Positions 2,423-21,236 of a DNA stretch of 32,000 bases are shown here, piece after piece; the first letter of the stretch is position 1; each line of letters opens with the position of its first letter. A program made the translations under genes and the position numbers. Source of the DNA: an uncultured Bacilli bacterium (GTDB lineage Bacteria > Bacillota_I > Bacilli_A > RF39 > UBA660); the NCBI GenBank assembly GCA_947631155.1, contig CANRKG010000003.1, positions 1 through 32,000 of the forward strand. The letters run 5' to 3'. The notes under the pieces were generated by a model. It made no database searches and was not told the DNA's origin. It saw only the letters and a program-made list of their open reading frames with translations.

Positions 2423-3244
2423 AGTAAGGAAATCAGAAGTGTTTGGGATAGTGAAAAAGAAGAATATTATTTTAGCGTAGTAGATGTAAAAAGTGCTTTA
2501 ACTGAAAGTAACAATCCAAGAAATTATTGGAATATGTTAAAGAAAAGAATGACTGAAGAAGAACAGAGTGAGTTGTCCACAAAATGTGTACAACTGAAAA
2601 TGAAATCTAAAAAAGATGGAAAAAGTTATTCTACTGACACTTTAGATACCAAGGGAATATTAAGACTTATAGAATCTGTTCCTTCGCCTAAAGCAGAGCC
2701 ATTTAAGATCTGGCTTGCAAATTTATGTAGTGAAAGAATCGACGAAGTATTTGATCCTGAAATTGCTATTAAAAGAGCAATTAATTATTACCGGAAAAGG
2801 GGATATTCTGATAAATGGATTGAAGCTAGATTAAAAGGCATATTAGACAGAAATAAATTAACTGATATATGGAAAGAGGGAGGTGTTTCAAAAGATTATG
2901 AATATGGAATTCTAACTAATGAAATATATAAAGAATGGTCGGGTATGAAAGCAAGTGAATATAAAGAGTATAAAGGTATAAGAAAAGAATCTTTAAGAGA
3001 TAACATGTCTGATATAGAAATTGCCCTTACTGATTTAGGAGAAATTGCTACTCGTGAACTTGCTAAGGAGCATAAACCTTATGGTTTAGAACAAAATAAA
3101 GTGATTGCTAAAATGGGTGGTAATGTTTCTAAAGTGGCAAGAGATAATTTAGAACAAAAACTTGGTAAAACAGTAATTAGTAATAAAAATAATCTTAACT
3201 ATCAATATTTAGAGGAAAAAGGAAAATTGGAAAATAAAAAATAA
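2423..3244 (+). pseudogene. N-terminally truncated Bro-N/DinD-like paralog (longest ATG ORF is 2534..3244)
   Basis: The frame is open from the TAG at 2420..2422 and encodes SKEIRSVWDSEKEEYYFSVVDVKSALTESNNPRNYWNMLKKRM. This aligns with residues ~17-55 of the 259..1116 product, but there is no ATG/GTG/TTG before 2534, so the first ~17 codons and the start are missing. The remainder is colinear with the paralog through the ...NLNYQY..EK.K.ENKK end. Confidence 0.55.
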
Positions 3245-3275: not shown

Positions 3276-4067
3276 TTATCTTCTTATATGTTGTTCAAGT
3301 TTATCAATTATAAAATACATTAAATAAGAAATAATACCTAATATAACAACAGATGTAATAACAAGGTCAATATTAAATACTTGAGAACCATACATTATCA
3401 GGTATCCTAAACCATTTTTAGATACTAATAGTTCTCCCATAATAACACCAATTAAACTCATAGAGATATTTATTTTTAAAGCATTTATAACAGTAACATA
3501 ATTACTTGGTAAGACTACTTTAAAAAAGATTTGTCTTTTGGTGGCTTTTAATGATTTTAATAGAATAATATAATTTTTATTAGTAGAAATAAACCCATTA
3601 TAAATATTAATAATTGTAATAAAAGTATTAATTAATAAAGCCATAAATATTATAGAGTTAATACTAGCTCCAACCCATATAATTATTAAAGGACCTAAAG
3701 CAACTTTTGGTAAAGAATTTAAAATAGTTAAATAAGGATCTATTATTTTAGATAAAATTTTATTACTCCATAAGATAGTAGCAGATATAAGACCAATAAT
3801 AGAAGCAATACCAAAACTTAGTAGTACTTCGTATAAAGTAATTCCAATATGTTTAAATAAACTACCATCTTTAAATAAATCAATAGTGGTTTTAACAGCA
3901 TTAGTAGGACTAGAAGATAAGAAAGTATTAATAATATGATATCTAGATAGTAATTCCCAACCTATTAAAAAAGTAGCAATTATTAATAATCTAAAGATAA
4001 ATATAATAATTTTTTCTCGACGCTGTCTTTTTAAATACTTTTTATGTTCTTCACTAAATGTGGACAT
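3276..4067 (-). CDS. ABC transporter permease, NitT/TauT (SsuC/TauC-like) family
   Basis: A 263-aa ORF with multiple hydrophobic helices and a conserved cytoplasmic-loop region (LKSLKATKRQIFFKVVLP). Its start overlaps the stop of the upstream ATPase fragment, which indicates operon coupling. Confidence 0.8.
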   Translation of the reverse strand: MSTFSEEHKKYLKRQRREKIIIFIFRLLIIATFLIGWELLSRYHIINTFLSSSPTNAVKTTIDLFKDGSLFKHIGITLYEVLLSFGIASIIGLISATILWSNKILSKIIDPYLTILNSLPKVALGPLIIIWVGASINSIIFMALLINTFITIINIYNGFISTNKNYIILLKSLKATKRQIFFKVVLPSNYVTVINALKINISMSLIGVIMGELLVSKNGLGYLIMYGSQVFNIDLVITSVVILGIISYLMYFIIDKLEQHIRR

Positions 4068-4395
4068 CTAAATCCCTCCAAATAGTATCATAATAAGTAG
4101 AAAATTCTTTACATTTTCTATTATTTATAGGAGTTGATTTGTCTGTTAGATTAATTTCATATATACTTTTCACTTTAGCTGGTCGTTTTGTTAAAACAAT
4201 AACTCTATCTGACATACTAATAGCTTCAGCAATATCATGAGTTACCATAATAGCGGTTTTACCTTCATTTTTGATAATTTTATAAATATCATCACTAATA
4301 GCAAGACGGGATTGATAATCTAAAGCAGACATAGGTTCATCTAAAAGTAAAATATCTGGTTTGATGGCTAAGGTTCTGATTAAAGCAACTCTTTG
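4054..4395 (-). pseudogene. ABC transporter ATP-binding protein, C-terminal fragment (gene split by element 1)
   Basis: It encodes QRVALIRTLAIKPDILLLDEPMSALD (the end of the signature motif plus Walker B) and the H-loop VTHD. It has no Walker A and no native start; the MCLHNI start in the ORF track lies in element DNA. The missing N-terminal half is at 10305..10722. Confidence 0.9.
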
Positions 4396-4411
4396 AATGT
4401 TGTGTAGACAC
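4386..4411. repeat. Left junction (attL-like) of element 1: 10-bp direct repeat plus inverted-repeat arm
   Basis: CAACTCTTTG (4386..4395) is identical to 10305..10314. GAATGTTGTGTAGACAC (4395..4411) is an imperfect inverted copy of GTGTCTTTAAAACATTC (10285..10301). Confidence 0.8.
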
Positions 4412-4452
4412 AAGGTAATAATTGTTAGAAGTTAAGCTTATAATCAAATAAG

Positions 4453-4483
4453 TTGTTAAAACCATTAAAGATTGTGATATAAT
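4453..4483 (+). promoter_or_regulatory. Extended -10 promoter candidate for the first element-1 gene
   Basis: TGATATAAT (TGnTATAAT, 4475..4483) with a weak TTGTTA -35 at 4453..4458 and a long 19-nt spacer. The AAAGGAGG RBS follows, ahead of the ATG at 4509. Confidence 0.4.
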
Positions 4484-4508
4484 ATTATTAGTTAAAGGAG
4501 GAAATAAT

Positions 4509-5162
4509 ATGGCTGAAATAATTAGTAAAGAAGAATATGCAAAAATGACAAATGAAGAAAAGATAGAATATTTTTTAAAAAAAGAAAAAGATAGAACTGA
4601 GGATGAAATTCCACCAATGGCAGTAGCATTATCAAATGCACTAAAAGATGATGAACTGATAAAACATACAGCTTCAATTATAAAAAGAATGTGCGATGGA
4701 GAGCCGGTTAATAAAAATCCATTAACTGAAATTCCAACTCCTCAAATGGTATTATATGGGTTTTCAGGGGCTTTTAAAAGTGTATATTTTGATACAGAAG
4801 AAGAGTTAGAAGAATATGTAAAAACTCATGATACAAGTTTTGGAGGTACATGTGTAATAGAATATCTTGGTAATGTTGCAGGTCGTAGTGATGTAATTAG
4901 AACAACTTCTAAAAATCGTAAACCTATACTTTTAACTGCTTGTGATAGAGATGGATATGGGATTTATAATGAAGAAAGAAGTATATATCGTGGGGAATTT
5001 GTTTGGGAATATACTAATGGTGATATAGAGGATATGTATTCAGCATTTAGAGATAGAGGTATCGTTTTTGAAGATGATATATATGGTGAACTTGCAGAAC
5101 AAGATAGAAAATTATTACAGATGTGTAGAGAAAAAAATTTATTTAATATGGGAAAAAAATAA
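4509..5162 (+). CDS. Hypothetical protein (element 1 cargo, 217 aa)
   Basis: A long ORF with a strong RBS (AAAGGAGG, 7 nt spacing). I recognise no motif. The protein is acidic and has no TM segment. Confidence 0.6.
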   Translation: MAEIISKEEYAKMTNEEKIEYFLKKEKDRTEDEIPPMAVALSNALKDDELIKHTASIIKRMCDGEPVNKNPLTEIPTPQMVLYGFSGAFKSVYFDTEEELEEYVKTHDTSFGGTCVIEYLGNVAGRSDVIRTTSKNRKPILLTACDRDGYGIYNEERSIYRGEFVWEYTNGDIEDMYSAFRDRGIVFEDDIYGELAEQDRKLLQMCREKNLFNMGKK

Positions 5163-5335
5163 TTGAAAAGTGTCATTAAGAGTGATGCTTTTTTTGTGAA
5201 ATGTAGTGAACTAATTGACATAATAGATAAATAAGTATAGAATAACTAATGCAAATGAAATTTTGCAATATCGTTTATGAAAGGTGGTGTTAGTTATGTT
5301 ATATAGAGACTACACCAAAAATTCGTATAAATGAT

Positions 5336-5737
5336 TTGACCCGAGCTTATGTTTCGGGAGCCGGATATTACGATGTTATACGTGAAGTCGGAAACATAAT
5401 ATCCATACAACCTCTTTATAATCAAACTTTTGATGAATTACTCTTTGAATTTGTAAAAGGAAATAACTGGACATTTAAACATTTAGCAGAAGTACTAAAT
5501 GTAGATGAAAAAACATTATATCGTCATAGATATGGTGAAATAAACGATAGAGAAATGACAATAAATATATGTATTGCTCTTGGATTAGATTTAGTTTCTA
5601 CTATTATAGTTTTGATGTCAAAAGGTTATATTCTTAACCCTATTAATAGAATTGATAAAAAGATTATTGTTTTTGTTAATACTAATAGGGAAATAGGACT
5701 TCAAAGAATAATAAGTTATGAAGATTATATGAAATAA
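5336..5737 (+). CDS. Putative helix-turn-helix protein (133 aa); start uncertain (TTG)
   Basis: It contains an HTH-like stretch, WTFKHLAEVLNVDEKTLYRHRYGE. There is no in-frame ATG near the 5' end. The TTG at 5336 lies 1 nt after the stop of a 12-codon ORF (5296..5334) that owns the strong RBS AAGGTGGTG. Confidence 0.5.
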   Translation: MTRAYVSGAGYYDVIREVGNIISIQPLYNQTFDELLFEFVKGNNWTFKHLAEVLNVDEKTLYRHRYGEINDREMTINICIALGLDLVSTIIVLMSKGYILNPINRIDKKIIVFVNTNREIGLQRIISYEDYMK

Positions 5738-5755
5738 TGGTTGTATTGTATGCAA

Positions 5756-5784
5756 TGCGCATCCAAAAATGGATGTGCTTTTTT
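5756..5784 (+). terminator. Intrinsic terminator
   Basis: GCGCATCCA / AAAA / TGGATGTGC forms a stem (one G-U pair) followed by T7. Confidence 0.75.
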
Positions 5785-5852
5785 TGTGGCATAAAATGCC
5801 CGATAAATATTATAACTTGGGCTTAAAATGTTAGTCAGGAGGTGAAAAGACT

Positions 5853-6167
5853 ATGAACATAAGAGATTTAGTAATTGATGCTAAAGCTACAATTGGTGAA
5901 AATCTAGTATGTGTAGATGTTGTAGAAAAAGCTGTCTACAAAGATGGTGTTAAAACTGATGAGACAATATATACCTACGATATAGTTTGCATAGACCGTA
6001 AAATGCTTCATATCAATGTTAAAATTCCTGGCAAACAATTAATTAGTTTAGATGGTAAAGATGTTGTGTATGTATCACTTACAGGTTTAGTTATAAAACC
6101 ATACTTAATGAACAATCAATTAAATTTCACAGCAACAGCTACAAGCATCGTAGAATTAAAAAATTAA
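5853..6167 (+). CDS. Hypothetical 104-aa protein; possible HelP/DUF961-like helicase processivity factor, judged by position only
   Basis: RBS AGGAGGTG upstream. It has the same size and position (immediately upstream of the FtsK-like gene and Rep) as ICEBs1 helP and Tn916 orf22/23. I cannot verify any sequence-level match. Confidence 0.35.
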   Translation: MNIRDLVIDAKATIGENLVCVDVVEKAVYKDGVKTDETIYTYDIVCIDRKMLHINVKIPGKQLISLDGKDVVYVSLTGLVIKPYLMNNQLNFTATATSIVELKN

Positions 6168-6223
6168 GAGAGATTTTTCTCTCTTCCCTCTAGATAGGGA
6201 AAAAGGTAAAGGAGAAATGTATT

Positions 6224-7426
6224 ATGTTTAAAAAAATATTAAGTAAAATTAATGTATTTAAAATAATTATAGTAGAGCTATATATAGTGTTGGCTCAATT
6301 AATGTGGCACTTAAAAGAATATCTTTATACGTTAGCAAATATTCAAATTAAATCATTCTCTTACTATGTATACAACACAGGTATAACTGTATCACTAACA
6401 GCAATATTGATTGCTTTAATTGTTAAGTTAAAAAATCCAATTAATACAAAGAAGGAGGAAAAAATTATGTTGGATATAGGATTAAAAAATAGAAATAGTG
6501 AAATACCAAAATTAAAAGAAACATATAATGACCCTGATAAAGAAAATGGTGTTGTTTATAGATTTATAAGTAAAAATATACCAAAATCAAAGTTTGAGGA
6601 ATTTACTGACGAATTAGAAAGAGCTTATGATATAAACATATATGGTATGAGAGAAATACCTGGTAAAAATAAATATATAGATATCTATTGTGTACCAAAA
6701 ATCTTTGACACATTAAAAGAATTTAGATTATCAACAGAAGATAAATTTATGGATAATTTTATACATGAATTAGTTGTTGGAGGTACAAGAAGTGGTAAAA
6801 CTTTTTACGCAAAAGGTAGAATTGTAAAGGCAGCTATGAATTTAGAATTGAACGAAAATGAAGAAGTGGAACTTTTTGTAGCTGATTATAAAAATGAGGA
6901 TTTCATAGAGTTTAAAAATAAAGCTAATTATTATGGTTTTAATTCTTCAGTTGATGGCATAAATAAAGTATATGAAATTATGAATGAAAGAGCTAAAAAT
7001 GGTAAAGATAGTTCAAACTATAGCACCGTCATACTACTAATAGATGAATATAGCACTTTACTTGCATCCTTAAAGAAAGATAAAGCTAATGAAATAAAAG
7101 ATAATGTTGCTAGTTTATTAAGAATGGGAGCTAGTAAAAAAATTAAAGTTATTGTGATTGACCAGGGTGGATATTCAGAACTATTTCAAGGAGCTAGATT
7201 AAATTTTAAAAGTATAATTGGATTTTCACAAATGAGTAGTAGTCAAATAGAGATGTTATTTAAAGATTATAAATCTCAAATGAAAGAAATTAATAAACAA
7301 GGTGAAGCTTATCTTTGGGAAGATGGTAAACCAGAATTAACAAGAGTTAGGGTTATTAAATATAGTGAAGATGAAGAAAAAATAATAAGTAATGTGATTG
7401 GTAGCAAGATGGGAAAGGATAAATAA
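6224..7426 (+). CDS. FtsK/SpoIIIE-TcpA-like DNA translocase / coupling protein
   Basis: A 400-aa ORF with two N-terminal TM helices, Walker A GGTRSGKT and Walker B VILLIDEY. This architecture is typical of Firmicute ICE/IME coupling proteins. Confidence 0.75.
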   Translation: MFKKILSKINVFKIIIVELYIVLAQLMWHLKEYLYTLANIQIKSFSYYVYNTGITVSLTAILIALIVKLKNPINTKKEEKIMLDIGLKNRNSEIPKLKETYNDPDKENGVVYRFISKNIPKSKFEEFTDELERAYDINIYGMREIPGKNKYIDIYCVPKIFDTLKEFRLSTEDKFMDNFIHELVVGGTRSGKTFYAKGRIVKAAMNLELNENEEVELFVADYKNEDFIEFKNKANYYGFNSSVDGINKVYEIMNERAKNGKDSSNYSTVILLIDEYSTLLASLKKDKANEIKDNVASLLRMGASKKIKVIVIDQGGYSELFQGARLNFKSIIGFSQMSSSQIEMLFKDYKSQMKEINKQGEAYLWEDGKPELTRVRVIKYSEDEEKIISNVIGSKMGKDK

Positions 7427-7430
7427 GTTG

Positions 7431-7504
7431 GTGAGGTCGCACGGCTGTAAGCAAGTGCGATCCACTGCCACCGTAGGTGGCTTTGACTTGATATCTTATA
7501 ACAC
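7431..7504 (+). promoter_or_regulatory. Candidate oriT/double-strand origin (hairpins plus CTTGATA nick-site-like sequence)
   Basis: A locally GC-rich patch contains hairpins GGTCGCAC/GTGCGATC (7435..7462) and GCCACC-GTA-GGTGGC (7467..7481). It is followed by GACTTGATATCTTATAACAC (7485..7504). CTTGATA sits at 7487..7493. Confidence 0.55.
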
Positions 7505-7524
7505 AAAAACATTTAATATTTTTT

Positions 7525-8409
7525 ATGAAGATAGAACGATTAAAAGATAACCCTAAAATATGTTTAAATGCTGATAGCCAAGTTGTCGTAAAAGAAACAG
7601 GAAATCTAACCGAAGTTAAGTATATGATTAATAATACTGGTGGTGTAATTAGAAAAATAGATAAAGATAATTATTTTGATATTCGTTCAGGTGAAGTCAA
7701 AAGGTATGAACATAAAGCAAAATCTAGAAAAGACAATAAATCTTCAATTAAAAGAACGATGAGAAACTTAAGGGATATTATTAATACTAATATTACTGAT
7801 TATAAAAAAATATTATTCATTACTTTAACTTATAAGGAAAATATGACTAATTCTAAACAACTTTATCAAGATGTTAGAAAATTTCATCAAAAATTAAAAA
7901 CTTATTTAAAAAATAAAAATTTACCTTATGATTTTGAGTATATTTCGGCTACTGAATGTCAAGCTCGTGGAAGTTTTCATCAACATAATCTATACATCTT
8001 TAAAACGAAAGCTCCATTTATTAAGAATGATGAATTAGCTAAAATATGGGGGTTAGGTTATACAAAGATTAAATCTTTAAAAGGTGTTTCAAATATCGGT
8101 TTATATCTTACAGCATATTTAACTGATTTAGATTTAACTGAAAATTTACAAAAGAAAAATAAAAGAGTTACTAAAGCTATAATCAAGGGAAAAAGATTAT
8201 CTTTTATACCCAAAAATTTTCGTATATATAGGTGTTCAAAAAATATATTGAAACCTACTATTTATAAAACAACTGAAAAAGAAGCTATGGAAAAAGTAGA
8301 TAATTCTATTTTAACTTATGAAAAAACTATTCGTATTTCTAATTATGATGGTAAAACAATTAATATCATTAATTATAGAAATTACAACAATATTAAAAAT
8401 ACGAAATAA
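7525..8409 (+). CDS. HUH-type rolling-circle replication initiator / relaxase (pC194 Rep_1-like motifs)
   Basis: A 294-aa ORF with FITLTY (compare Rep motif 1, FLTLT), FHQHNLYIF (HUH-type His pair) and Tyr-containing LYLTAYLTD. There is no obvious SD before the ATG. Confidence 0.65.
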   Translation: MKIERLKDNPKICLNADSQVVVKETGNLTEVKYMINNTGGVIRKIDKDNYFDIRSGEVKRYEHKAKSRKDNKSSIKRTMRNLRDIINTNITDYKKILFITLTYKENMTNSKQLYQDVRKFHQKLKTYLKNKNLPYDFEYISATECQARGSFHQHNLYIFKTKAPFIKNDELAKIWGLGYTKIKSLKGVSNIGLYLTAYLTDLDLTENLQKKNKRVTKAIIKGKRLSFIPKNFRIYRCSKNILKPTIYKTTEKEAMEKVDNSILTYEKTIRISNYDGKTINIINYRNYNNIKNTK

Positions 8410-8466
8410 TAAGAGATATCTCATATAAGAAAAAATGAAGCATATCTTTTGGTAAGGAGGTTTTGC

Positions 8467-8592
8467 TATGAAATATAATGTTATTGATTTAATAGAACCA
8501 ACTCTAACCGATGAAGAATTAAAAAATATTATTAATAAAAAATTATTTAATTTTATTATGTTTATGGAAATGAGTTTAAATAATAGTGGATA
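8467..8592 (+). CDS. Small ORF (41 aa) immediately upstream of the recombinase
   Basis: AAGGAGG lies 7 nt before the ATG. The product is MKYNVIDLIEPTLTDEELKNIINKKLFNFIMFMEMSLNNSG. This ORF is not in the supplied track because it is too short. Confidence 0.4.
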
Positions 8593-8664
8593 GATGCTAT
8601 AATTATATCGGTTATAAGTTTAACTTAATTAATAATTATTGCCTTAAGAATGGAGGTAATAGTT

Positions 8665-10272
8665 ATGAATGAAATGGAGAGTGAAAGTAAACTATTAAGA
8701 GTTGGTAATTATTATCGACTATCAGATGAAGATAGAGATAAACAAAACAAGTTAGATGATAGCGAAAGTATTAAAAATCAAAAACATTTATTATTAGATG
8801 AAATAGCAAAGCATCCAAATTATGTATTAGTAGATGAATATTGTGATGAAGATTTATCAGGAGCTGGAACTTATAGACCTGAATTTGAAAGACTAATAAG
8901 AGATTGTGAACTTGGTAAAATTGATATTGTATTATGTAAGAGTCAATCAAGATTTTCAAGAGATATGGAAATTATAGAAAAATACTTACATAATAAATTT
9001 ATTGAATGGAATGTAAGATTTATAAGTTTATCAGATAATGCTGATACCTCTAATCCAGGTAATAAAAAATCTAGACAAATAAATGGTTTAGTAAATGAAT
9101 GGTATTTGGAAGATGTTTCAAATAATATAAGAAGTGCTTTTCATTCAAAAATGAAACAAGGCGAATTTATATCTCCCTTTGCTTCCTATGGTTATGAAGT
9201 GTCTGAATATGATAACAATAAATTAGTTATTGATCCTGTAGCTAGTGAAGTTGTAAAAGATATCTTTGATTTATATTTAAGTGGTCTTGGTTTTACAGGA
9301 ATAGCTAAACATTTAAATAGTAAAAATATACCTTGCCCATCACTTTATAAATATCAAAAGGGAATTAAATTAAATGTAATTAGCAATAGACCTAGAGAGC
9401 AAATAAAATGGAGTGCAAATGCTATTAAAACAATTTTAACAAATGAATTATATTTAGGTCATTTAATACAAGGTAAAAGAACAACAGTTAGTTATAAAAA
9501 TCATAAAATTATAAGTAAAGATAAAAGTCTATGGATTAAAAAAGAAAATATGCACGAAGCTATTATTGATGAAGAAACCTTTAATAAAGTTCAAATGGAA
9601 ATGAAAGAAAGAACTAAACCTATCAAAAAGACAGGTATGGTTCATATCTTTTCAGGTAAAGTATTTTGTTTAGAATGTAATCATTATTTAAGAAAAAAGA
9701 ATTCACCAAGACACGAATATTTAGTTTGTTCTAATAATCGTGATGGCTACGATGATTGTATCAATAAAGCATCTATGAGATATGATACTTTAGAAGATAT
9801 TGTTTTAAATGCTATTAATGAAAAAATTAAAAAGTTCTATGATGAAGAGATTTTAAGGCAAGAAGAAAGTAATAAGAATATATCTCGTTTTGCTGATAAA
9901 ATAAAATCTTTAGAAAAAGAAAAGCTAGAGCTTGAAAGTAATTTATCTAAAAATAAAAATTATCTAAAAAGTCTTTATGAAGATAAAGTAAATGGATTAA
10001 TTAATTCTGAACAATTTAAAGATTTATTGGATGACTATAATAAGAATGAAGATATTTACAAAAAACAAATAATACAAATAAATAATGATATTAATTTTTA
10101 CACTTTAAAACAAGAATCATCTTTAAATAATAATAAATTATTTAGTAAATATAAAACTCTTAATAAATTAAATCGTGTTATTGTTGATGAATTTATAGAT
10201 AAAATTTATATCGGAAAAATAAATAAAGAAACTAATACAAGAAATATCCAAATAAAATGGAATTTTGAATAA
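8665..10272 (+). CDS. Large serine recombinase (element 1 integrase)
   Basis: An N-terminal resolvase-type catalytic domain (YYRLSDED Ser, SQSRFSRD) is followed by a recombinase domain, a Cys-rich zinc-ribbon region (CLECNH...C..NRDGYDDC) and a coiled-coil tail. I prefer the ATG at 8665 (GGAGG at 8652..8656, 8 nt spacing) over the track start at 8650. Confidence 0.9.
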   Translation: MNEMESESKLLRVGNYYRLSDEDRDKQNKLDDSESIKNQKHLLLDEIAKHPNYVLVDEYCDEDLSGAGTYRPEFERLIRDCELGKIDIVLCKSQSRFSRDMEIIEKYLHNKFIEWNVRFISLSDNADTSNPGNKKSRQINGLVNEWYLEDVSNNIRSAFHSKMKQGEFISPFASYGYEVSEYDNNKLVIDPVASEVVKDIFDLYLSGLGFTGIAKHLNSKNIPCPSLYKYQKGIKLNVISNRPREQIKWSANAIKTILTNELYLGHLIQGKRTTVSYKNHKIISKDKSLWIKKENMHEAIIDEETFNKVQMEMKERTKPIKKTGMVHIFSGKVFCLECNHYLRKKNSPRHEYLVCSNNRDGYDDCINKASMRYDTLEDIVLNAINEKIKKFYDEEILRQEESNKNISRFADKIKSLEKEKLELESNLSKNKNYLKSLYEDKVNGLINSEQFKDLLDDYNKNEDIYKKQIIQINNDINFYTLKQESSLNNNKLFSKYKTLNKLNRVIVDEFIDKIYIGKINKETNTRNIQIKWNFE

Positions 10273-10284
10273 AAATAGTTATAA

Positions 10285-10314
10285 GTGTCTTTAAAACATT
10301 CATCCAACTCTTTG
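10285..10314. repeat. Right junction (attR-like) of element 1
   Basis: GTGTCTTTAAAACATTC (10285..10301) is the inverted partner of 4395..4411. CAACTCTTTG (10305..10314) is the direct repeat of 4386..4395. Confidence 0.8.
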
Positions 10315-10722
10315 TCTCATACCTCCAGATAGACTAGCTGGATATTTATCTTTAAATTCATATAATCCATAAGTTTTTAGTAAATCTAATACATATTGTT
10401 TACTTTCATCATTTAATTTCTTAGTTACTTCTAAACCAATTAAACAATTATCTAAAATAGTTCTCCAAAAGAATAGGGAATCTTGTTGTAACATATAACC
10501 GATAGTAATATTTTCTTTTAAGTGGAACATTCCCCCAGATTTTTTTTCTAACATAGAAAGAATGGAAAGTATTGTTGACTTTCCACATCCACTGGGTCCT
10601 ACTATTGAAATAAATTCTTTATCATAAACATCAAATGTTATATCTTCTAAAGCTTTAATTTCACTTTTTTTATCATGGTAGCTTTTTTTCAAATGCTGAA
10701 TACTTAAAATTTTATTTTTCAT
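10305..10722 (-). pseudogene. ABC transporter ATP-binding protein, N-terminal fragment
   Basis: It has Walker A GPSGCGKST, a Q-loop region and the signature LSGGMRQRV, then runs into element DNA (G, stop). It continues at 4395 as QRVALIRTLA. Confidence 0.9.
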
Positions 10723-11116
10723 TATAGATCAACTTACTATAATCAACTTTTTTAGTTAAGTCACCACTATCAATCATTATATCTTGTAAATGATTAAATG
10801 ATTCTTCACTGAATTTTGTTGTATCAGGCCAAGTATCATTTTCTCTATATCTTTTAACTGCACTAGTTAAATCATTTAAAGATGTATCTGGAAATTGTTT
10901 TAAAATAGTTTTTGCTACTTCTTTATCAGAATGATTTTTTACATAATCTAGTCCTTTTTGGATAGCTTTTTCGAAATTAGTTATTAATTCTTTATGATTG
11001 TCTAAATAACTAATTCTTGCTGAATATGATGTATATGGAACTACACCACCTAGTTGTCCAACACTAGCGACAACATGACCATAACCTTGTTGTTCTACTT
11101 CTGTAGCATTAGGTTC
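10712..11116 (-). pseudogene. ABC substrate-binding protein (NMT1/THI5-SsuA-like), C-terminal fragment
   Basis: An unlisted minus-strand frame encodes EPNATEVEQQGYGHVVASVGQLGGVVPYTSYSARISYLDNHKELITNFEKAIQKGLDYV...DYSKLIYNEK*. It has no start codon, and its stop overlaps the ATPase ATG. The N-terminal half is at 21237..21833. Confidence 0.8.
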
Positions 11117-11247
11117 TCTTAATGCAACAATAAGAAGTCACTAATATTATTAGGTTTATAAAAATGTCTAAAAATGTATACAACAGATAAAAAACATATT
11201 ATAACTTCAAAAAATTTGTTAAAATTATAATTAGGAGGCGATAGATA

Positions 11248-12003
11248 ATGTTTATGGGCGATGAACCAATTCATATTAATGCAAAACCAGGTGATATAGC
11301 TCCACTTGTATTAATGCCAGGAGATCCATTAAGAGCTAAATATATTGCGGAAACATTTTTACACGATACTATAGTTGAAGATTTTTCAATAGATAATAAA
11401 AATGTTGCAAATTTAAGAAATATGTTAGGGTACACAGGTTTTTATAAAGGAGTAAGAGTAACTGTTATGGCATCAGGAATGGGAATGCCAAGTATGGGAA
11501 TTTATGCTTTTGAGTTATTTCATTACTTCAATGTTGAAAAAATAATAAGAATAGGAACATGTGGCTCATTAAAACCAACTGTAAAAGTACCTGATCTTAT
11601 TTTAGCAAATAGTTCTTACTCAGAATCAAATTTTGCTTATACTTTTAACGATTATAAAGAACATATTACTTATCCTTCAAATTCTTTAAATAATACTATT
11701 ATAGAAACAGCTGAAGAATTAAACTATAAACTTCATGTTGGAGATATAACTACTATGGATGTATTTGGTCCATATATTGACTATGATAGAGTGTTAGCTA
11801 GAGTACCTAAAGATTTAGATATAGTAGCAGAAGAAATGGAAGCTTTTGGTTTATTTCATATAGCAAATCATTTTGAAAAAGAAGCTGCTTGTATTTTAAC
11901 AGCGGTAGATTCAAAATATAGTAAGATTGTTTTAAGTGGCGAAGAAAGAGAAAAAAGTTTAAATAGTATGATTACTCTGGCATTAGAATCCATTATAAAA
12001 TAG
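11248..12003 (+). CDS. deoD: Purine nucleoside phosphorylase, DeoD type
   Basis: HINAKPGDIAPLVLMPGDPLRAKYIAETFL, GYTGFYKG, IRIGTCG and EMEA are all colinear with E. coli DeoD as I recall it. AGGAGG RBS upstream. Confidence 0.85.
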   Translation: MFMGDEPIHINAKPGDIAPLVLMPGDPLRAKYIAETFLHDTIVEDFSIDNKNVANLRNMLGYTGFYKGVRVTVMASGMGMPSMGIYAFELFHYFNVEKIIRIGTCGSLKPTVKVPDLILANSSYSESNFAYTFNDYKEHITYPSNSLNNTIIETAEELNYKLHVGDITTMDVFGPYIDYDRVLARVPKDLDIVAEEMEAFGLFHIANHFEKEAACILTAVDSKYSKIVLSGEEREKSLNSMITLALESIIK

Positions 12004-12008
12004 TTTAT

Positions 12009-12033
12009 AAAACAAGCTGTTAAGCTTGTTTTT
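12009..12033 (+). terminator. Intrinsic terminator after deoD
   Basis: AAAACAAGCT / GTTA / AGCTTGTTTT forms a perfect 10-bp stem followed by a T run. Confidence 0.8.
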
Positions 12034-12103
12034 AAATACAAAGTTATTTTTTATTTAGTGTTATTTTATTTTAGATTTCATAATGTTAATTAAAGGAGAC
12101 TTC

Positions 12104-12280
12104 ATGATGAAAAATATTATGAAAGAGGAAAATATAAAATTTAATGATACAGAAATAGTATTAGAAGTAGCTCTTTTTTTAAACAAACAACTATTTGATG
12201 AACAAAAAATATCATATAAAATGTTCAAATATACAGAAGAACATATCTTAAAAGAATTCAATAACATTAGGAGTATATAA
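12104..12280 (+). CDS. Small ORF (58 aa) that precedes recombinase genes of this type
   Basis: AGGAG lies 5 nt before the ATG at 12104 (the track start at 12083 lies upstream of that RBS). The product is MMKNIMKEENIKFNDTEIVLEVALFLNKQLFDEQKISYKMFKYTEEHILKEFNNIRSI. A frameshifted homolog lies at 13411..13570, directly upstream of the intact recombinase. Confidence 0.45.
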   Translation: MMKNIMKEENIKFNDTEIVLEVALFLNKQLFDEQKISYKMFKYTEEHILKEFNNIRSI

Positions 12281-12431
12281 AGAAAAATCATTAGTGGACT
12301 TATATAACAGAATATGTAGATGATGGAATAACTGGTACTAGTGATGTAAAAAGAGATAATTTTATGAAGATGATTCTAGTTATATGACAGGTCAAGTTAT
12401 TCACAATAATGGTTGGGAAGTAATGGGATAA
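12269..12431 (+). pseudogene. Fossil recombinase-SDR fusion remnant (two internal deletions)
   Basis: 12274..12375 matches recombinase 13720..13821 (GTATATAAAGAAAAATC...TGGACTTATATAACAG.ATATGTAGATGATGGAATAACTGGTACTAGTGATGTAAAAAGAGATAATTTTATGAAGATGATT). 12376..12431 matches the SDR 3' end at 16217..16272 (CTAGTTATATGACAGGTCA.GTTAT.CACAATAATGGT.G.GAAGTAATGGGATAA). Confidence 0.85.
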
Positions 12432-12556
12432 TATTGTTCGAATAATTTCTATAAAAATCGTGATTAATAAATTATATTTGTAAAGCATAAATTTGACAAA
12501 AAAAAATTAAATAGTATAATACAGTTAAATATTATTAAAGGGAGGCTTTAAGTTTT

Positions 12557-13261
12557 ATGGAAAAACAAACACTTGATGTTATGGCGGACAAATTATCAGA
12601 AAGAATGAAAGGCATTAATGATTGGATAAGAAGTAATCCAAATACAGATCCTAATTTTTATGAAATAATGGATTGTGAAGTAGAATTAGGAAAGTTATTA
12701 TCATACAAGAATCAGTATTATCAGGAAAATGGTTATCCAGAAAAGAAAAATGATAATGGCACAAACTCTTTATATACACATCATGAAATTTTTAAGTTTG
12801 ATGAACATGTAAAAAAAGCACATGATGAATTAAAGGAAATGATTAATTTAAGAGGTTCAGGAATAGCGAAAGTATTACAAGATATTCCTGAACTATATAA
12901 TATGTGGCAAGAAATAGGTTATCGTACTGGAATAGCAGAATATCATGATCCAAAAGGCGATATGTCTGAAATAAAAAAGAAAATTCTTTGTAAGAGTGTA
13001 AGTATTCCATTTTATATTTGGCAAGAAAGAAGAACAAACCCTGACTTCCAATATGATAATACAGTTGAATATGATGAGTTAAAAGAAATGTATGATTTGT
13101 ATAGTGCACAAGTAGGAAAACAAACAATAAATGAACATAAAGACGGAAGTTTTTATGAAGGACCGCAATTTGGTGAAGAAATTGAAAATTTAATTGGCTT
13201 TATTGAAAAATCTTATAAATATAGTACACAATATGGTAACGATGGAGCAAAGGCAAGATAA
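12557..13261 (+). CDS. Hypothetical protein (234 aa)
   Basis: A long ORF with GGGAGG RBS. I recognise no motif. The protein is soluble and rich in aromatic and acidic residues. Confidence 0.6.
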   Translation: MEKQTLDVMADKLSERMKGINDWIRSNPNTDPNFYEIMDCEVELGKLLSYKNQYYQENGYPEKKNDNGTNSLYTHHEIFKFDEHVKKAHDELKEMINLRGSGIAKVLQDIPELYNMWQEIGYRTGIAEYHDPKGDMSEIKKKILCKSVSIPFYIWQERRTNPDFQYDNTVEYDELKEMYDLYSAQVGKQTINEHKDGSFYEGPQFGEEIENLIGFIEKSYKYSTQYGNDGAKAR

Positions 13262-13283
13262 TCTTAAATAATATAAATTAAAT

Positions 13284-13327
13284 GAGTTCTAATGAAGTGA
13301 AAAAATTTCATTAGACTCTTTTTTTTA
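13284..13327 (+). terminator. Intrinsic terminator
   Basis: GAGTTCTAATGAA ... TTCATTAGACTC forms a stem (one bulged T) followed by T8. Confidence 0.7.
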
Positions 13328-13410
13328 GAAAAATGTTTGCAAAGTTAAATTTTTTCTTAAAGTATTATTTTATTACTTGTTTCATAACTTAAAATAGAGG
13401 AGAATTTACA

Positions 13411-13570
13411 TGAATTTTAATGATTTTACTAAAATTGCAGAAGTAAAGTAGTATTAGAAGTAGCTCTTTTTTTAATAAACAACTATTTTATGACCAAAAA
13501 ATATAATAAAAATGTTCAAATATACAGAAGAACATATCTTAAAAGAATTACATAACATTAGGAGGATATA
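13411..13570 (+). pseudogene. Frameshifted copy of the small pre-recombinase ORF
   Basis: It is homologous to 12140..12280 but stops after 13 codons (ATGAATTTTAATGATTTTACTAAAATTGCAGAAGTAAAGTAG) and has further frame breaks. Its 3' end (...ATCTTAAAAGAATTACATAACATTAGGAGGATATAA) supplies the recombinase RBS. Confidence 0.6.
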
Positions 13571-13572
13571 AT

Positions 13573-15276
13573 TTGGATTTATATGATGTTAGAAAAAAAC
13601 TTAATATGGGAATATCACTTACTAATATAAAACTTAAAGTTACTGATTATGCCAGAGTATCAACTGATTCTCATGAGCAAAAAAAATCTCTTCAAAATCA
13701 AGTAGAACATTTTGAGGAGTATATAAAGAAAAATCCCCAGTGGACTTATATAACAGGATATGTAGATGATGGAATAACTGGTACTAGTGATGTAAAAAGA
13801 GATAATTTTATGAAGATGATTGAAGATGCTAGACAGGGTAATTTTGATTTAATTATTACAAAAGAAATTTCTAGATTTTCTAGAAATACTCTTGATAGTA
13901 TTAAATATACTAGAGAACTTTTATCATATGGAGTAGCTGTGTTATTTGTAAATGACAATATAAATACAGCTATGCCTGATTCTGAACTTCGACTTACTAT
14001 AATGGCGTCCATGGCTCAAGATGAGATTAGACGTTTATCAGAACGTGTTAGATTTGGAATGAATAGAGCTATAGAACGTAGAGAAATACTTGGAAACAAT
14101 TTACTTTATGGTTATAAAAAAGATAAGAATACAGGTATATTGAATATTATTCCTGATGAAGCTAGTTTAATTAAGCAAATATATGAATACTATGCCATAG
14201 AAGAATTATCTCTTTCTAAAATTGTGAAAATTTTAAATAGTGAAAACAAAAAAAATCATCAAGGTCATAAGTGGTATATTTCAACAATTTCTAGAATGAT
14301 TGAAAATCCTAAGTATAAAGGTTACTATTGTGCAAGAAAGTCGGAAGTAGTAGATTATATGACTAAGAAAATAAAATATTTTGAAAAGGATCGTTGGATT
14401 ATCCAAGAAGATAAAGCTAAAATTCCCCCACTAGTTTCAGAAGATTTATGGGAAAGAGCTAATAAACGGTTAATTTCAAGAAAAAAAGCGTTTAAGTGTC
14501 GAAATCAAGATAAAGAAATTTATACAAATAGATATTTATATAGTGCTAAAATTTATTGTAAAGATCATAATACAGCTTTTTATAGAAGAAAGTTTAGAAA
14601 AAGTAGCGATGATATAACATGGGTTTGTGCAGAATATCTCAAAAATGGGAAAAATGCTTGTGATTCACCTAATATTAGAGAATCAGAATTAGATTATATT
14701 TTTAAAGATTTAATAGAAAAATTACCAATTAATTTTGATGAAATTATTGATGTTCTTATGAAGTGTTATAAATGCGTAGAAATAGATAAGGAACTTAAGG
14801 AAGAAATTGTTACCAGAAAAAAAGAGTTAGACAAACTTTATATAAAAAAAGATAAAATATTAGAACTTAATATTCAAGGTAGTTTATCTAATGATGAGTT
14901 TATGATAAAAAATAATACGTTTAATGACAATATAAATAAACTTACTAAAGAGATTAATGAACTTAAAAATTCACAGGAAAAGATAGACAAAGTAGACAAT
15001 ATAACTAAAGAGTTTGCAACTATTGTAAAGTTAAAAGTTAATTCGCAATCTACAATAAATAAAATAATTAGTTTGATACTTAAGTATATGAAAGTTTCGA
15101 AGATTAATAATGATAAGAATAGAGTAAGATTAGATATCTTTTTATCTTATGGAGAAAGTTATAAAAAGCCATTATTAGGTTCTTATTTAAAAAATATTTA
15201 TGAGTTTAAAAGAGGATATGATACTAAAGGTACAAAAAGATATACAGTTTACTACCAGGTTAATTGTTATTTATAA
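13573..15276 (+). CDS. Large serine recombinase (element 2)
   Basis: A 567-aa ORF with the catalytic YARVSTD, ISRFSRN and MAQDEIRRLSERV motifs, followed by a recombinase domain, a Cys-rich region (CKDH...C..YLKNGKNAC) and a coiled-coil tail. It has a TTG start with GGAGG 7 nt upstream. Confidence 0.9.
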   Translation: MDLYDVRKKLNMGISLTNIKLKVTDYARVSTDSHEQKKSLQNQVEHFEEYIKKNPQWTYITGYVDDGITGTSDVKRDNFMKMIEDARQGNFDLIITKEISRFSRNTLDSIKYTRELLSYGVAVLFVNDNINTAMPDSELRLTIMASMAQDEIRRLSERVRFGMNRAIERREILGNNLLYGYKKDKNTGILNIIPDEASLIKQIYEYYAIEELSLSKIVKILNSENKKNHQGHKWYISTISRMIENPKYKGYYCARKSEVVDYMTKKIKYFEKDRWIIQEDKAKIPPLVSEDLWERANKRLISRKKAFKCRNQDKEIYTNRYLYSAKIYCKDHNTAFYRRKFRKSSDDITWVCAEYLKNGKNACDSPNIRESELDYIFKDLIEKLPINFDEIIDVLMKCYKCVEIDKELKEEIVTRKKELDKLYIKKDKILELNIQGSLSNDEFMIKNNTFNDNINKLTKEINELKNSQEKIDKVDNITKEFATIVKLKVNSQSTINKIISLILKYMKVSKINNDKNRVRLDIFLSYGESYKKPLLGSYLKNIYEFKRGYDTKGTKRYTVYYQVNCYL

Positions 15277-15351
15277 TTGATTAAAATTTAGTCTAAATGT
15301 TCCCATTTTTAAGTCTTCTCATATACTATATTTAGTTGAGGAGGAAAAATA

Positions 15352-16272
15352 ATGAATTTTGATTATCAATATGGAAATCAATATTATCGATACTTTTATC
15401 CAAATGGACTTAGAAGTACAGAATATAAGATTCTAGCGCCAGAACAATCTCAAAATACTCAACCAGGTATGGAATATTTAATGAACCCTTTACCTATTTT
15501 TGATAATCCTAATTATGTTGGAAGTGGAAAACTTAAAAATAAGGTAGCAATTATTACAGGAGGAGATAGTGGTTTAGGTAGAGCTGCCGCTGTTGCTTTT
15601 GCTAAAGAAGGAGCTAAGCTTGTAATCCCATATTATAATGAACATAGGGATGCTCAATATACTAAACAGTATATTGAGAAACTTGGTGGAGAATGTATTA
15701 TAATGTCAGGGGATATTTCGGATAAGAAATTTTGTAAACAAATTGTTGATACTACTTTAAATACTTTTGGAAAAATAGATATTTTAGTAAATAATGCTGG
15801 AGTACAATATCAGCAAGATGAACTTGCATCCATTAGTGATGAACAATTTGATTGGACGATGAAAGTCAATGTTTATGGAATGTTTTATTTAACTAAAGCA
15901 GCGTTACCATATTTAAAATCAGGGGCATCAATTATTAATTTGAGTTCAGTAACAGCCTTCTATGGTGATCCACAATTAATAGATTATGTTACAACAAAAG
16001 GTGCTATTGTGGGCTTTACTAGAGCTTTGGCCAGAAATTTAGCTTTAAAAAATATTCGTGTAAATGCTATAGCTCCAGGCTTTTTCTGGACACCTTTACA
16101 ACCAGCTTGTTGGGTAAAAGAAAAGATTCCTTCATTGGGATCAAATGCTGCGATGGCAAGAGGTGCTATGCCATATGAATTAGCTCCAACATTTGTGTTT
16201 TTAGCATCAGATGATTCTAGTTATATGACAGGTCAGGTTATACACAATAATGGTGGAGAAGTAATGGGATAA
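15352..16272 (+). CDS. Short-chain dehydrogenase/reductase (YhxC/YdaD/YghA-like general-stress SDR)
   Basis: It has the TGGDSGLGRA cofactor motif, NNAG, S...Y...K (YVTTKGAIVGFTR) and the pre-Rossmann PGME..M.P.P segment typical of this SDR subgroup. Confidence 0.8.
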   Translation: MNFDYQYGNQYYRYFYPNGLRSTEYKILAPEQSQNTQPGMEYLMNPLPIFDNPNYVGSGKLKNKVAIITGGDSGLGRAAAVAFAKEGAKLVIPYYNEHRDAQYTKQYIEKLGGECIIMSGDISDKKFCKQIVDTTLNTFGKIDILVNNAGVQYQQDELASISDEQFDWTMKVNVYGMFYLTKAALPYLKSGASIINLSSVTAFYGDPQLIDYVTTKGAIVGFTRALARNLALKNIRVNAIAPGFFWTPLQPACWVKEKIPSLGSNAAMARGAMPYELAPTFVFLASDDSSYMTGQVIHNNGGEVMG

Positions 16273-16323
16273 TATAAAAAGAGACTAATACATAGTTTCT
16301 TTTTCTTTAATGATACAAATTTA

Positions 16324-16872
16324 CTACAAAAATAATCGTTTAAACATTAATTTCATATAATTTATAATTTCATCAAGAGAATATGGAACTTCTTTTCGAT
16401 AATGTTTAATTATTAGATGCATACAACCATCTACAAAAAAAGGAATATGAAATTCTAGGTTGGTAATTTTTTTTTGTTTTAATAGGTTATATAAATTTTT
16501 CGAGATAATTTCACTAAAAGACTCTATAAAAAGAAGGGGATCTTTACTAGATAAAATCATTGTATAAATTTCTTCATTAGCTTCTAAATAGTTCTTAATC
16601 TCATCGAAATAAAGGTTTATATCCGCAATAGATTGTACCTTTTTCATGTTTTCAACAAAAATAGCAAGACTTTCTTCTTGAAATTCTTTGGCAATTTCAT
16701 AGATATTGTCATAATGTGTATAGAAGGCACTTCTTGTTATATCTGCCTTCATAACTAAATCTGTCACCGTCAATTTGTTCAAACTTTTCTTCTCCGAAAG
16801 AAGTTCTGCAAAAGCGTGTCTAATTTTTTCTTTAGTCTTTCTAGAAGAAGAATTTATCCCTTTTACTTTCAT
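16324..16872 (-). CDS. TetR/AcrR-family transcriptional regulator
   Basis: It has an N-terminal HTH (LTVTDLVMKADITRSAFYTHYDNIYE) and is divergent from the MMPL gene. I prefer the start at MKVKG (GGGAG 8 nt upstream) over the track start at 16887. Confidence 0.8.
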   Translation of the reverse strand: MKVKGINSSSRKTKEKIRHAFAELLSEKKSLNKLTVTDLVMKADITRSAFYTHYDNIYEIAKEFQEESLAIFVENMKKVQSIADINLYFDEIKNYLEANEEIYTMILSSKDPLLFIESFSEIISKNLYNLLKQKKITNLEFHIPFFVDGCMHLIIKHYRKEVPYSLDEIINYMKLMFKRLFL

Positions 16873-17023
16873 ATAATCAACTCCCATCTAAGAAGTAGTA
16901 TATCATAATTTTGATAAAATTCAAAAAAATGTAGAAATTTTGACACAAACAATATTTTTGATATTTACGAATAAAATGATAGGTGATATAGTAGAGCTTA
17001 TGCACTTGAAAGGAAGGAAAATT

Positions 17024-21103: not shown

Positions 21104-21126
21104 ATATTGAAAAAAAGATTTATAGA

Positions 21127-21154
21127 ATACACTTCCATCTGGAAGTGTATTTTT
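21127..21154 (+). terminator. Intrinsic terminator after the MMPL gene
   Basis: ATACACTTCC / ATCT / GGAAGTGTAT forms a perfect 10-bp stem followed by TTTT. Confidence 0.8.
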
Positions 21155-21236
21155 AGATTAACTTTATATATGTGGATTAAATAGAAAATATATTAATAAA
21201 TTTATTAAAAAGGGGAGTTATTATCATTACACTATC

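Follow-up and report, generated by a model that had tools for sequence, protein, structure and literature searches.

The 32,000-nt stretch of DNA analyzed here ("the window" throughout) consists of positions 1 to 32,000 of contig CANRKG010000003.1 (assembly GCA_947631155.1), from an uncultured Bacilli bacterium. Our analysis indicates that positions 4390–10308 are very probably an integrated 5.9-kb element of the integrative mobilizable element (IME) type, whose TndX-like large serine recombinase (LSR) is site-specific for a position inside the ATPase gene of an ATP-binding cassette (ABC) importer. The element joins a known class, that of site-specific integrative elements driven by LSRs. We found no earlier description in the literature of this target or of the recombinase clade, or of an ABC ATPase gene as a serine-integrase target.

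An interrupted ATPase gene and its intact counterparts

The insertion into the ATPase gene is confirmed. When the sequence was re-read, the 10-bp direct repeat, the inverted arms and the two gene halves were all found where the initial annotation had placed them (Table 1). The repeat, CAACTCTTTG, occurs exactly twice on the plus strand of the window, at 4386–4395 and 10305–10314, against a chance expectation of 0.05 matches, and none of 100 shuffled sequences contained two copies. Imperfect inverted repeats lie inside these cores: GAATGTTGTGTAGACAC at 4395–4411 and GTGTCTTTAAAACATTC at 10285–10301 (reverse complement GAATGTTTTAAAGACAC). On the minus strand, an open reading frame (ORF) at 10300–10722 terminates with ...LSGGMRQRVG and a stop codon, and another at 4054–4413 includes ...QRVALIRTLAIKPDILLLDEP.... 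Deletion of the element had been predicted to restore the reading frame, and it does so: joining 10722–10315 to 4395–4054 through one copy of the repeat yields a 750-nt ORF encoding 249 aa plus a stop (...LSGGMRQRVALIRTLA...). The rebuilt protein has a full PF00005 ABC_tran domain (E 2e-26), and its best named relatives are NitT/TauT-type ATPases, from the SaoA, nitrate, taurine and sulfonate families.

The same protein exists uninterrupted in nature. The rebuilt ATPase is 98% identical to an intact protein, P0001, and gut metagenomes encode dozens of intact 249-aa proteins with 84–92% identity to it. The contig that encodes P0001 (L001) comes from a sister strain; it has 93–97% DNA identity to the window flanks, and the element is absent from it. 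Positions 1–1187 of this contig align with window positions 11498–10305, and positions 1178–1787 align with 4395–3786, such that the two alignments overlap by exactly the 10-bp core. The uninterrupted gene, which relatives had been expected to carry, is thus present in the sister strain, where one copy of the core joins the two flanks. A more distant relative (L002–L004) has the gene within an operon that encodes a substrate-binding protein (SBP; NMT1), the ATPase and a permease.

In an AT-rich genome that resembles a metagenome-assembled genome (MAG) and in which short repeats are frequent, one might suspect an error of assembly or binning, or a repeat that arose by chance beside a decayed pseudogene. 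This explanation is effectively refuted: the 10-mer is beyond chance, dozens of assemblies, independent of one another and drawn from different hosts and studies, have the same junction, and the empty site exists.

The site is found in a third state within the same species. A rabbit-gut MAG (Lapin-017 bin14; L028), with flanks 92–96% identical to those of the window, carries a different element of 10.4 kb at this site, in the opposite orientation and with a recombinase 74% identical to that of the window. Conversely, elements with 91–93% DNA identity to the window element occur in two loci, L005 and L007, whose host ATPases are only 53–74% identical to the window ATPase (tblastn with the two halves) and whose flanks have no other blastn similarity to the window flanks. 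As judged from these comparisons, the element has spread horizontally across hosts. The cross-host spread and the existence of three site states in one species (the window element, the empty site and the other element) together show recent mobility.

Could the insertion instead be a domesticated, regulated element of the skin/sigK, SPβ/spsM or fdxN/XisF type, with programmed excision that rebuilds the ATPase gene when it is needed? Excision would restore the ORF exactly, and the halves of the ATPase gene and of the SBP gene, which is also split (see below), are free of stops and frameshifts. In addition, the NCBIfam entry that ranks first for the recombinase is XisF, though the score of 116 bits is far below the cut-off of 375. 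However, occupancy is polymorphic within the species; cargo, size (2.8–13 kb) and orientation vary freely among related elements; tandem arrays occur; near-identical elements are found in distant hosts; and the element has predicted replication and mobilization genes of its own. The variable occupancy, cargo and hosts, together with these genes, argue for a mobile element of the selfish kind; we consider a fixed developmental switch highly unlikely.

Table 1. Coordinates of the predicted element, its boundaries and adjoining importer genes in the window.
Feature	Position	Strand	Description	Remarks
Permease gene, same importer operon	3276–4067	−	BPD_transp_1; SsuC/TauC-like	Synteny with L002
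ABC ATPase gene, C-terminal half	4054–4385	−	ALIRTLAIKPDILLLDEP ... H-loop ... stop	
Left junction core	4386–4395		One CAACTCTTTG copy	Probable crossover dinucleotide AC at 4388–4389 (+), read on the coding strand as the GT of Val139; dinucleotide from comparison of attL and attR at 32 loci
Integrated element (probable)	4390–10308		5,919 bp, crossover to crossover	25.8% G+C (host 26–27%)
Left element-side arm (attP half-site)	4396–4411		AATGTTGTGTAGACAC	TGAAT-N7-AGACAC motif, conserved in 28 relatives
217-aa protein	4509–5162	+	No family match	Variable cargo position: present in L007, replaced in L005
133-aa protein	5336–5737	+	No family match	44% identical in L005 and L007
104-aa protein	5853–6167	+	No family match	95–96% conserved in L005 and L007
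TcpA/FtsK-like P-loop DNA translocase, 400 aa	6224–7426	+	N-terminal membrane helices	Candidate conjugative coupling protein
Rolling-circle replication initiator (Rep), 294 aa	7525–8409	+	PF23343 (E 3.5e-17); PHROG 3419	Candidate relaxase
Large serine recombinase	8650–10272	+	Resolvase, Recombinase, Zn-ribbon and DUF4368 domains	Last gene of the element, 32 bp from the core
Right element-side arm (attP half-site)	10285–10304		GTGTCTTTAAAACATTCATC	Conserved GTGTCT-N7-ATTCA motif
Right junction core	10305–10314		Second CAACTCTTTG copy	Probable crossover dinucleotide AC at 10307–10308
ABC ATPase gene, N-terminal half	10315–10722	−	Walker A ... LSGGMRQRV	Cut off after 140 aa by the element

Attachment sites, recombinase and target choice

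The left and right attachment (att) junctions, attL and attR, were compared at 32 loci, with the reading frame of the ATPase gene guiding the alignment. Two positions, the GT of the Val139 codon, are the only ones at which attL and attR agree in every pair; neighbouring positions match in 16–31 of the 32 pairs. Because this dinucleotide alone is invariant, the crossover is 2 bp. The run shared by attL and attR varies from 2 to 12 bp among relatives, with reductions to 2–8 bp relative to the window. Hence, the 10-bp direct repeat in the window is genuinely present but comprises the 2-bp crossover plus 8 bp at which attP happens to resemble attB, by chance or convergence. A similar refinement applies to the location of attB, which the initial annotation had assigned to the ABC signature: the crossover falls outside the LSGG codons, at the GT of Val139 five codons downstream, but an attB of 40–50 bp would span the signature codons. 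One locus, L048, has AC in place of GT (a Thr rather than a Val codon) at both junctions (2322 and 9498, in ATPase orientation), and represents a natural variant of the central dinucleotide with divergent attP arms. A target-site duplication by a DDE transposase was also considered as the origin of the 10-bp repeat. It is ruled out by the absence of a transposase, the position of the repeat within the restored ORF, and the variable length of the overlap.

Joining the element ends reconstructs an attP, GTGTCTTTAAAACATTCATCCAACTCTTTGAATGTTGTGTAGACAC, that forms a 46-bp dyad with 16 of 25 positions pairing about the centre. An attP-type dyad of about this length had been anticipated from the window, and it is conserved in relatives. 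Once reconstructed, the attP sites prove to be almost perfectly palindromic about GT, and in many relatives perfectly so; that of L008, for example, is GTGTCTTCACTATATTCATACA-GT-TGTATGAATGTTGTGTAGACAC. The attP of the window element has the form GTGTCT-N7-ATTCA-N4-GT-N4-TGAAT-N7-AGACAC, and the consensus half-site, read from the centre outward, is T(G/c)nnTGAAT-N7-AGACAC. In a subgroup consisting of L044, L045, L047 and L048, the outer arms are AACCAACA or AACCCACA, where most others have AGACAC, and the crossover codon is unchanged. For attB, the consensus reads ...TTATCTGGWGGWATGAGACAAAGA-GT-TGCTTTAATCAGRACWCTWGC.... The outer motif in the right half of attB aligns best with the attP arms at an outward shift of 5 bp, with an identity of 0.49–0.52 as compared with 0.20–0.36 at other shifts. 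A 5-bp offset between attB and attP is reportedly what the zinc-ribbon-domain model of LSRs, said to have been put forward by Rutherford and colleagues in 2013, expects. The sites therefore look like those of LSRs in general: imperfect palindromes of ~40–50 bp with a 2-bp crossover in common and an offset attB motif.

The recombinase ORF named in the initial annotation, 8665–10272, is real, and its start is favoured over the ATG at 8650 because homologues are 535 aa long, the length that the start at 8665 gives. The protein matches PF00239 (E 5.9e-21, residues 21–172), PF07508 (E 8e-24), PF13408 (E 1.3e-10), PF14287 (DUF4368; E 1.3e-6) and PHROG 95 "integrase" (E 5e-103), and has a Ser in the context YYRLSDED at the position expected for the catalytic domain. 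The closest annotated relative that we found is TndX of Tn5397, with 31.7% identity over 97% of the length. Relatives in the PDB include 3g13, a recombinase from a C. difficile conjugative transposon, SPβ SprA, which aligns with residues 16–456, and the catalytic domain of TnpX. The presence of DUF4368 and the full-length similarity to TndX place the protein, on sequence grounds, in the TndX/TnpX-like LSR subfamily.

We propose that this recombinase would act on the 46-bp near-palindromic attP of the circular element and on attB in the NitT/TauT-type (SsuB/TauB-like) ATPase gene, with strand exchange at the GT of the Val139 codon, between ...LSGGMRQR and VALIRTL.... Integration cuts the gene in two and inactivates it, and the predicted excision at the same dinucleotide would restore the ATPase exactly.

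How general is the choice of this site? A scan for the recombinase in one genome per GTDB species found 80 loci, nearly all in MAGs from the guts of animals and humans that are labelled as uncultured Bacilli or "Tenericutes". Junctions were surveyed at 57 loci, including the window, in which the recombinase is at least 57% identical. In 52 of these, the junction is at the same codon, between LSGGM(R/K)QR and V; it is seen on both sides in 31 loci, on the C-terminal side only in 17, and on the N-terminal side only in 4. At the other five, which have no junction, the contig ends within ~1.2 kb of the recombinase gene. No other insertion target was found among the 57 loci. When the loci were searched with the rebuilt ATPase (tblastn), residues ~1–140 matched on one side of the element and residues ~137–249 on the other. 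A more divergent recombinase, 48% identical, occupies the same ATPase site in L065, and the other 23 loci, with less than 52% identity, lie elsewhere. Neighbour-joining analysis groups the recombinases that target the ATPase gene into a single clade, apart from two outgroup clades found outside this gene. The prediction that other copies of the element would have the same arms and the same junction was borne out in L005, L006, L007 and L102, and in ~50 more distant relatives. Site specificity for the codons of QR and the following V is a property of the clade as a whole.

These observations bear on a further alternative, namely that the element is a low-specificity transposon of the TndX/TnpX type, with a multi-targeting DUF4368 LSR, that landed in this gene by chance. 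The crossover dinucleotide of TndX and TnpX is GA, and both enzymes accept many different targets. The recombinase of the window is TndX-like and has DUF4368, a domain typical of multi-targeting LSRs (PMC10083194). However, relaxed target choice fails as a description of the clade: the junction is the same in 52 of 57 loci and different in none, the crossover is GT rather than GA, and paralogues with a similar core are untouched. A chance landing by such a transposon is therefore extremely improbable.

The initial annotation had inferred a very wide target range from the conservation of the ABC signature. This holds across hosts but not across paralogous ABC ATPases. The targeted orthologues are 49–98% identical to one another (median 59%), with flanks of 22–33% G+C, and the site appears from these sequences to be usable across a broad set of hosts. 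In contrast, six distinct paralogous ATPase genes, present at eight of these loci, resemble the target over much of the core, and all are intact. The match to the core reaches CAAAGAGTTGC in two of these genes; their core sequences include ...CAAAGAGTTGCAATAGCAAGAGC... (two genes) and ...CAACAAAGAGTTGCAATAGCAAGAGC.... That paralogues with a similar core are uninterrupted suggests that specificity lies in the LIRTL-coding flank and not in the signature codons alone, although, with a sample as small as six genes, rare off-target events may occur.

Element genes, putative mobilization and exchangeable cargo

The element has six ORFs, all on the plus strand, with gaps of at most 240 bp. Sequence matches of the 400-aa ATPase were weak (FtsK_SpoIIIE, EccC), and neither this protein nor Rep matched the PDB by sequence; hence, we used a fold search for the ATPase. 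An AlphaFold model built from 14 homologues (pLDDT 73) best matched TcpA of pCW3 (6o1w/6o1x; 6o1w E 1.2e-14, TM 0.5–0.58), followed by the FtsK motor, and this modelled fold suggests a TcpA-type coupling protein. Rep is 31–40% identical, over its full length, to Reps of 1.5–2.6-kb Firmicute and rumen plasmids, and is also similar to inovirus Reps, with 32% identity to the Rep of 5.8-kb bajarodino inoviruses. Relatives of the TcpA-like protein (45–49% identical; L093–L098) are encoded in small elements, directly after Viral_Rep and before a Tn916-type Xis and a tyrosine integrase. The occurrence of Rep-TcpA with tyrosine integrases suggests a portable mobilization module that pairs with different integration modules. 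The elements in L093–L098 also show module exchange between serine- and tyrosine-recombinase IMEs. Among elements related to that of the window, the Rep/TcpA module is common only to L005, L007 and L102.

The window element has its own integration/excision module, in the form of the LSR and both att junctions, and, with only six ORFs in 5.9 kb, no complete mating-pore (type IV secretion system) set. It looks like an IME. We propose that the excised element would replicate via the rolling-circle Rep and would be mobilized by a conjugative element resident in the same cell; in this scheme, the relaxase would be Rep, and the TcpA-like ATPase would be the coupling protein. Such helper mobilization in trans is putative, and horizontal spread points to it indirectly.

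The same genes can be read as those of an integrated filamentous (inovirus/plectrovirus-like) prophage, or of an integrase-bearing rolling-circle plasmid, in which the P-loop ATPase would be a pI/Zot-type morphogenesis protein and Rep would serve replication. Consistent with this, Rep matches PF23343 "ORF2/G2P" and resembles the Rep of bajarodino inoviruses of similar size, and the hosts are Mollicutes-like Bacilli, a group known to carry plectroviruses. However, no match to Zot was obtained; membrane helices are present at the N-terminus of the ATPase, whose fold is nearest to TcpA and whose relatives lie in Rep-TcpA-Xis-Int elements typical of IMEs; and six ORFs leave no room for the small coat genes and large adsorption gene of bajarodino virus 9. 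We therefore regard a prophage or plasmid of this kind as unlikely, and favour an IME.

Several observations weigh against an active IME of the kind that we propose. The circular-form attP is absent from scans of IMG/VR and JGI, collections that apparently lack the host group, and current excision is a prediction from the junctions; a free attP at the exact spacing was found neither in IMG/VR nor in the fetched loci. A search for the attL pattern AGAGTWGNWTGAATRNNNNNAGACAC gave five hits in JGI metagenome contigs and one in IMG/VR, all by chance and outside any ABC context; since the host group is apparently missing there, these hits do not address target range. Three of the six element proteins, those of 217, 133 and 104 aa, have no assignable function, with no family matches in Pfam, NCBIfam or PHROG. 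The TcpA-like model is of moderate confidence (pLDDT 73, TM ~0.5), the role of Rep as a relaxase is proposed by analogy, and no oriT, double-strand origin or recombination directionality factor (RDF) was identified in the element. Lastly, tandem arrays with internal attP-like sites, described below, are unexpected of a strict attP × attB integrase.

Related elements, which range from 2.8 to 13 kb, have the recombinase and att sites in common and differ in cargo, each cargo cluster being common to at most 6 of 30 elements. The cargo includes a Mob_Pre (MobV) relaxase with an AAA_25 protein; P-type ATPase, HMA and ArsR proteins, as metal-resistance sets; Bro-N, RhuM-Fic and YhcG nuclease proteins; a methyltransferase with an AAA ATPase, assigned by reading translations rather than by Pfam scan; and proteins of 1,100–1,750 aa, some of which are surface-like by inspection. 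Alanine racemase and D-Ala-D-Ala ligase genes are present in L025, with further genes, and in L056; this pair is reminiscent of van-type glycopeptide-resistance clusters. The smallest element, L047, encodes the recombinase and a Bro-N protein, and nothing else. We propose that the monophyletic recombinase clade would constitute a shared integration module that inserts many unrelated cassettes into one site in uncultured gut Bacilli.

The recombinase gene is found in either orientation relative to the ATPase gene, and the orientation seen in the window ("opposite") occurs in at least six separate branches of the tree. Both orientations are possible because the near-palindromic attP leaves polarity to the central dinucleotide alone. 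Elements may also be stacked: a fuzzy local search found full attP-like sites between adjoining elements in L007, L026, L034, L051 and L102. In L102 (ERZ15610138), the ATPase site is occupied from 5040 to 16032 by a window-like Rep/TcpA/LSR element and then by a Bro-N + LSR element in the opposite orientation, with a full attP-like site, GTGTCTTTAAAACATTCAAACAACTCTTTGAATGTAGTGAAGACAC, dividing them at 11623–11668. This array suggests recombination between attP and an occupied junction, and the recombinase may be more permissive than a simple attP × attB model.

Two Bro-N genes lie just beyond the permease gene in the window, at 259–1116 and 2534–3244. Both have homologues in the Bro-N genes that follow the recombinase gene in L016, L026, L032, L047 and L102, with 64% identity in the case of the first. 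The two window genes could encode an accessory or directionality factor, or be remnants of older elements.

Other insertions in the operon and comparison with known systems

The SBP gene of the window is also split, at Glu197 (between GDFVTLFE and PNATEVE), into minus-strand segments at 10715–11131 and 21237–21833. The two junctions share GAA (21239–21237 and 11116–11114) and enclose an insert of ~10.1 kb (~11117–21236). This insert encodes a second LSR (13573–15276, 567 aa) that is unrelated to the first (23% identical) and is without DUF4368, as well as PNP, SDR, TetR and a 1,387-aa MMPL protein. In L026, L038 and L050, the SBP gene is interrupted at this residue by relatives of the second LSR (61–71% identical), and called genes indicate a like arrangement in L102; L001 and L028, from the same species as the window, also hold the SBP insert. 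Within the insert, 12047–12434 repeats the region upstream of the second LSR gene and its 5ʹ end (13351–13844) in blocks that are 71–100% identical, and then switches to a match with the SDR gene at its 3ʹ end (16209–16275; 94% identity). This stretch looks like the remnant of a deleted tandem copy.

A third type of element, 5.7 kb long, is inserted in the ATPase gene at the H-loop (after MVTHD), downstream of the first site, in L020 (4424–10156) and L026 (from 21468). Its genes encode a 364-aa small serine recombinase, a sortase and, by inspection, a 646-aa surface-type protein. In L030, the SBP gene is split at ~residues 140–158 (3515–3919 and 8075–8641), and the locus has a second recombinase match. 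At least four distinct target sites for serine recombinases appear to be present in the operon.

We consider it an even bet that the importer operon, taken as a whole, is a multi-site LSR landing pad. This reading comprises four propositions: that a TndX-derived DUF4368 clade is strictly specific for the codons of QR and V after the ABC signature; that this clade is an exchangeable integration module resembling that of the staphylococcal cassette chromosome (SCC), with unrelated cargo, either orientation and tandem stacking; that at least three further lineages target SBP Glu197, SBP ~140–158 and the ATPase H-loop; and that the tandem arrays imply use of attL or attR as recombination partners.

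Among the IMEs of streptococci and clostridia, those with a site-specific serine recombinase disrupt dispensable genes, and in non-canonical IMEs relaxases of the Rep type are paired with TcpA (Coluzzi et al. 2017; Guedon et al. 2017, PMC5704250). The window element resembles these IMEs in that it is small, has a single serine recombinase, lies inside and disrupts a dispensable conserved gene with very short direct repeats, and has a Rep-family putative relaxase adjoining a TcpA/FtsK-like ATPase but no mating-pore genes. It differs in its recombinase clade, its new target (the ABC ATPase gene) and its uncultured gut Bacilli hosts, and its mobilization is putative. In addition, its Rep is of the PF23343/Rep_1 type rather than PF01719, PF02407 or Rep_trans.

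With Tn5397 (TndX) and Tn4451/Tn4453 (TnpX) of Clostridioides/Clostridium, the window element shares an LSR subfamily with a DUF4368 C-terminus, a 2-bp crossover and, as predicted here, a circular intermediate. The window clade differs in its GT crossover and its restriction to one site, and the elements are much smaller than Tn5397. TndX and TnpX are each described as one enzyme that carries out both integration and excision without an RDF (in part PMC5704250).

A constant LSR and att module, variable cargo (in SCCmec, genes for resistance, restriction and metabolism), a single site in a conserved gene, and tandem arrays with att-like sites are likewise features of SCCmec, which is inserted into rlmH by CcrAB or CcrC. 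However, the recombinase of the window element is single and is not a Ccr protein (CcrB 90, CcrC 87 and CcrA 53 bits, against cut-offs of 700–900, that for CcrB being 900). Furthermore, SCC insertion spares rlmH, whereas the target of the window element is inside the ORF and the gene is destroyed.

Diverged LSRs have been found to converge on one conserved gene, such as prolyl-isomerase and Mg-chelatase/ComM targets, and DUF4368 LSRs are mostly multi-targeting, whereas site-specific LSRs rarely have the domain (0.73% of them; Durrant et al. 2022, PMC10083194). The main text of that paper has no ABC ATPase target ("abc" has 0 occurrences). Our set is similar to theirs in that many orthologues, down to 48–58% identity, use one conserved coding site, but the window clade bears DUF4368 and yet is site-specific. 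As with A118/φ10403S in comK, SPβ in spsM, skin in sigK and the fdxN/XisF element, an LSR cuts a coding sequence that excision would restore precisely; in contrast to these, the window element is a small, polymorphic, horizontally moving cassette rather than a phage or a fixed developmental element with regulated excision. A preprint on Thermotogota proviruses was considered as a precedent and is ruled out, since the ABC transporters discussed there are receptors and not att sites.

What do these findings add? For an uncharacterized LSR, they provide an attP/attB pair and a crossover dinucleotide validated by comparison across relatives. The ~30 diverged orthologues that use one nearly constant attB with different attP arms are raw material for deciphering an LSR DNA-recognition code and for specificity engineering. 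For annotation, split "pseudogenes" of this ABC importer in MAGs of this kind should be taken as occupied att sites. A cassette-exchange system is documented in poorly known uncultured gut Bacilli, and the DUF4368/TndX-like lineage, usually treated as multi-targeting, can be strictly site-specific. At the level of the family, our analysis adds a site-specific TndX-like offshoot with exchangeable cargo, both orientations and tandem arrays, and an importer operon that is targeted at several fixed codons.

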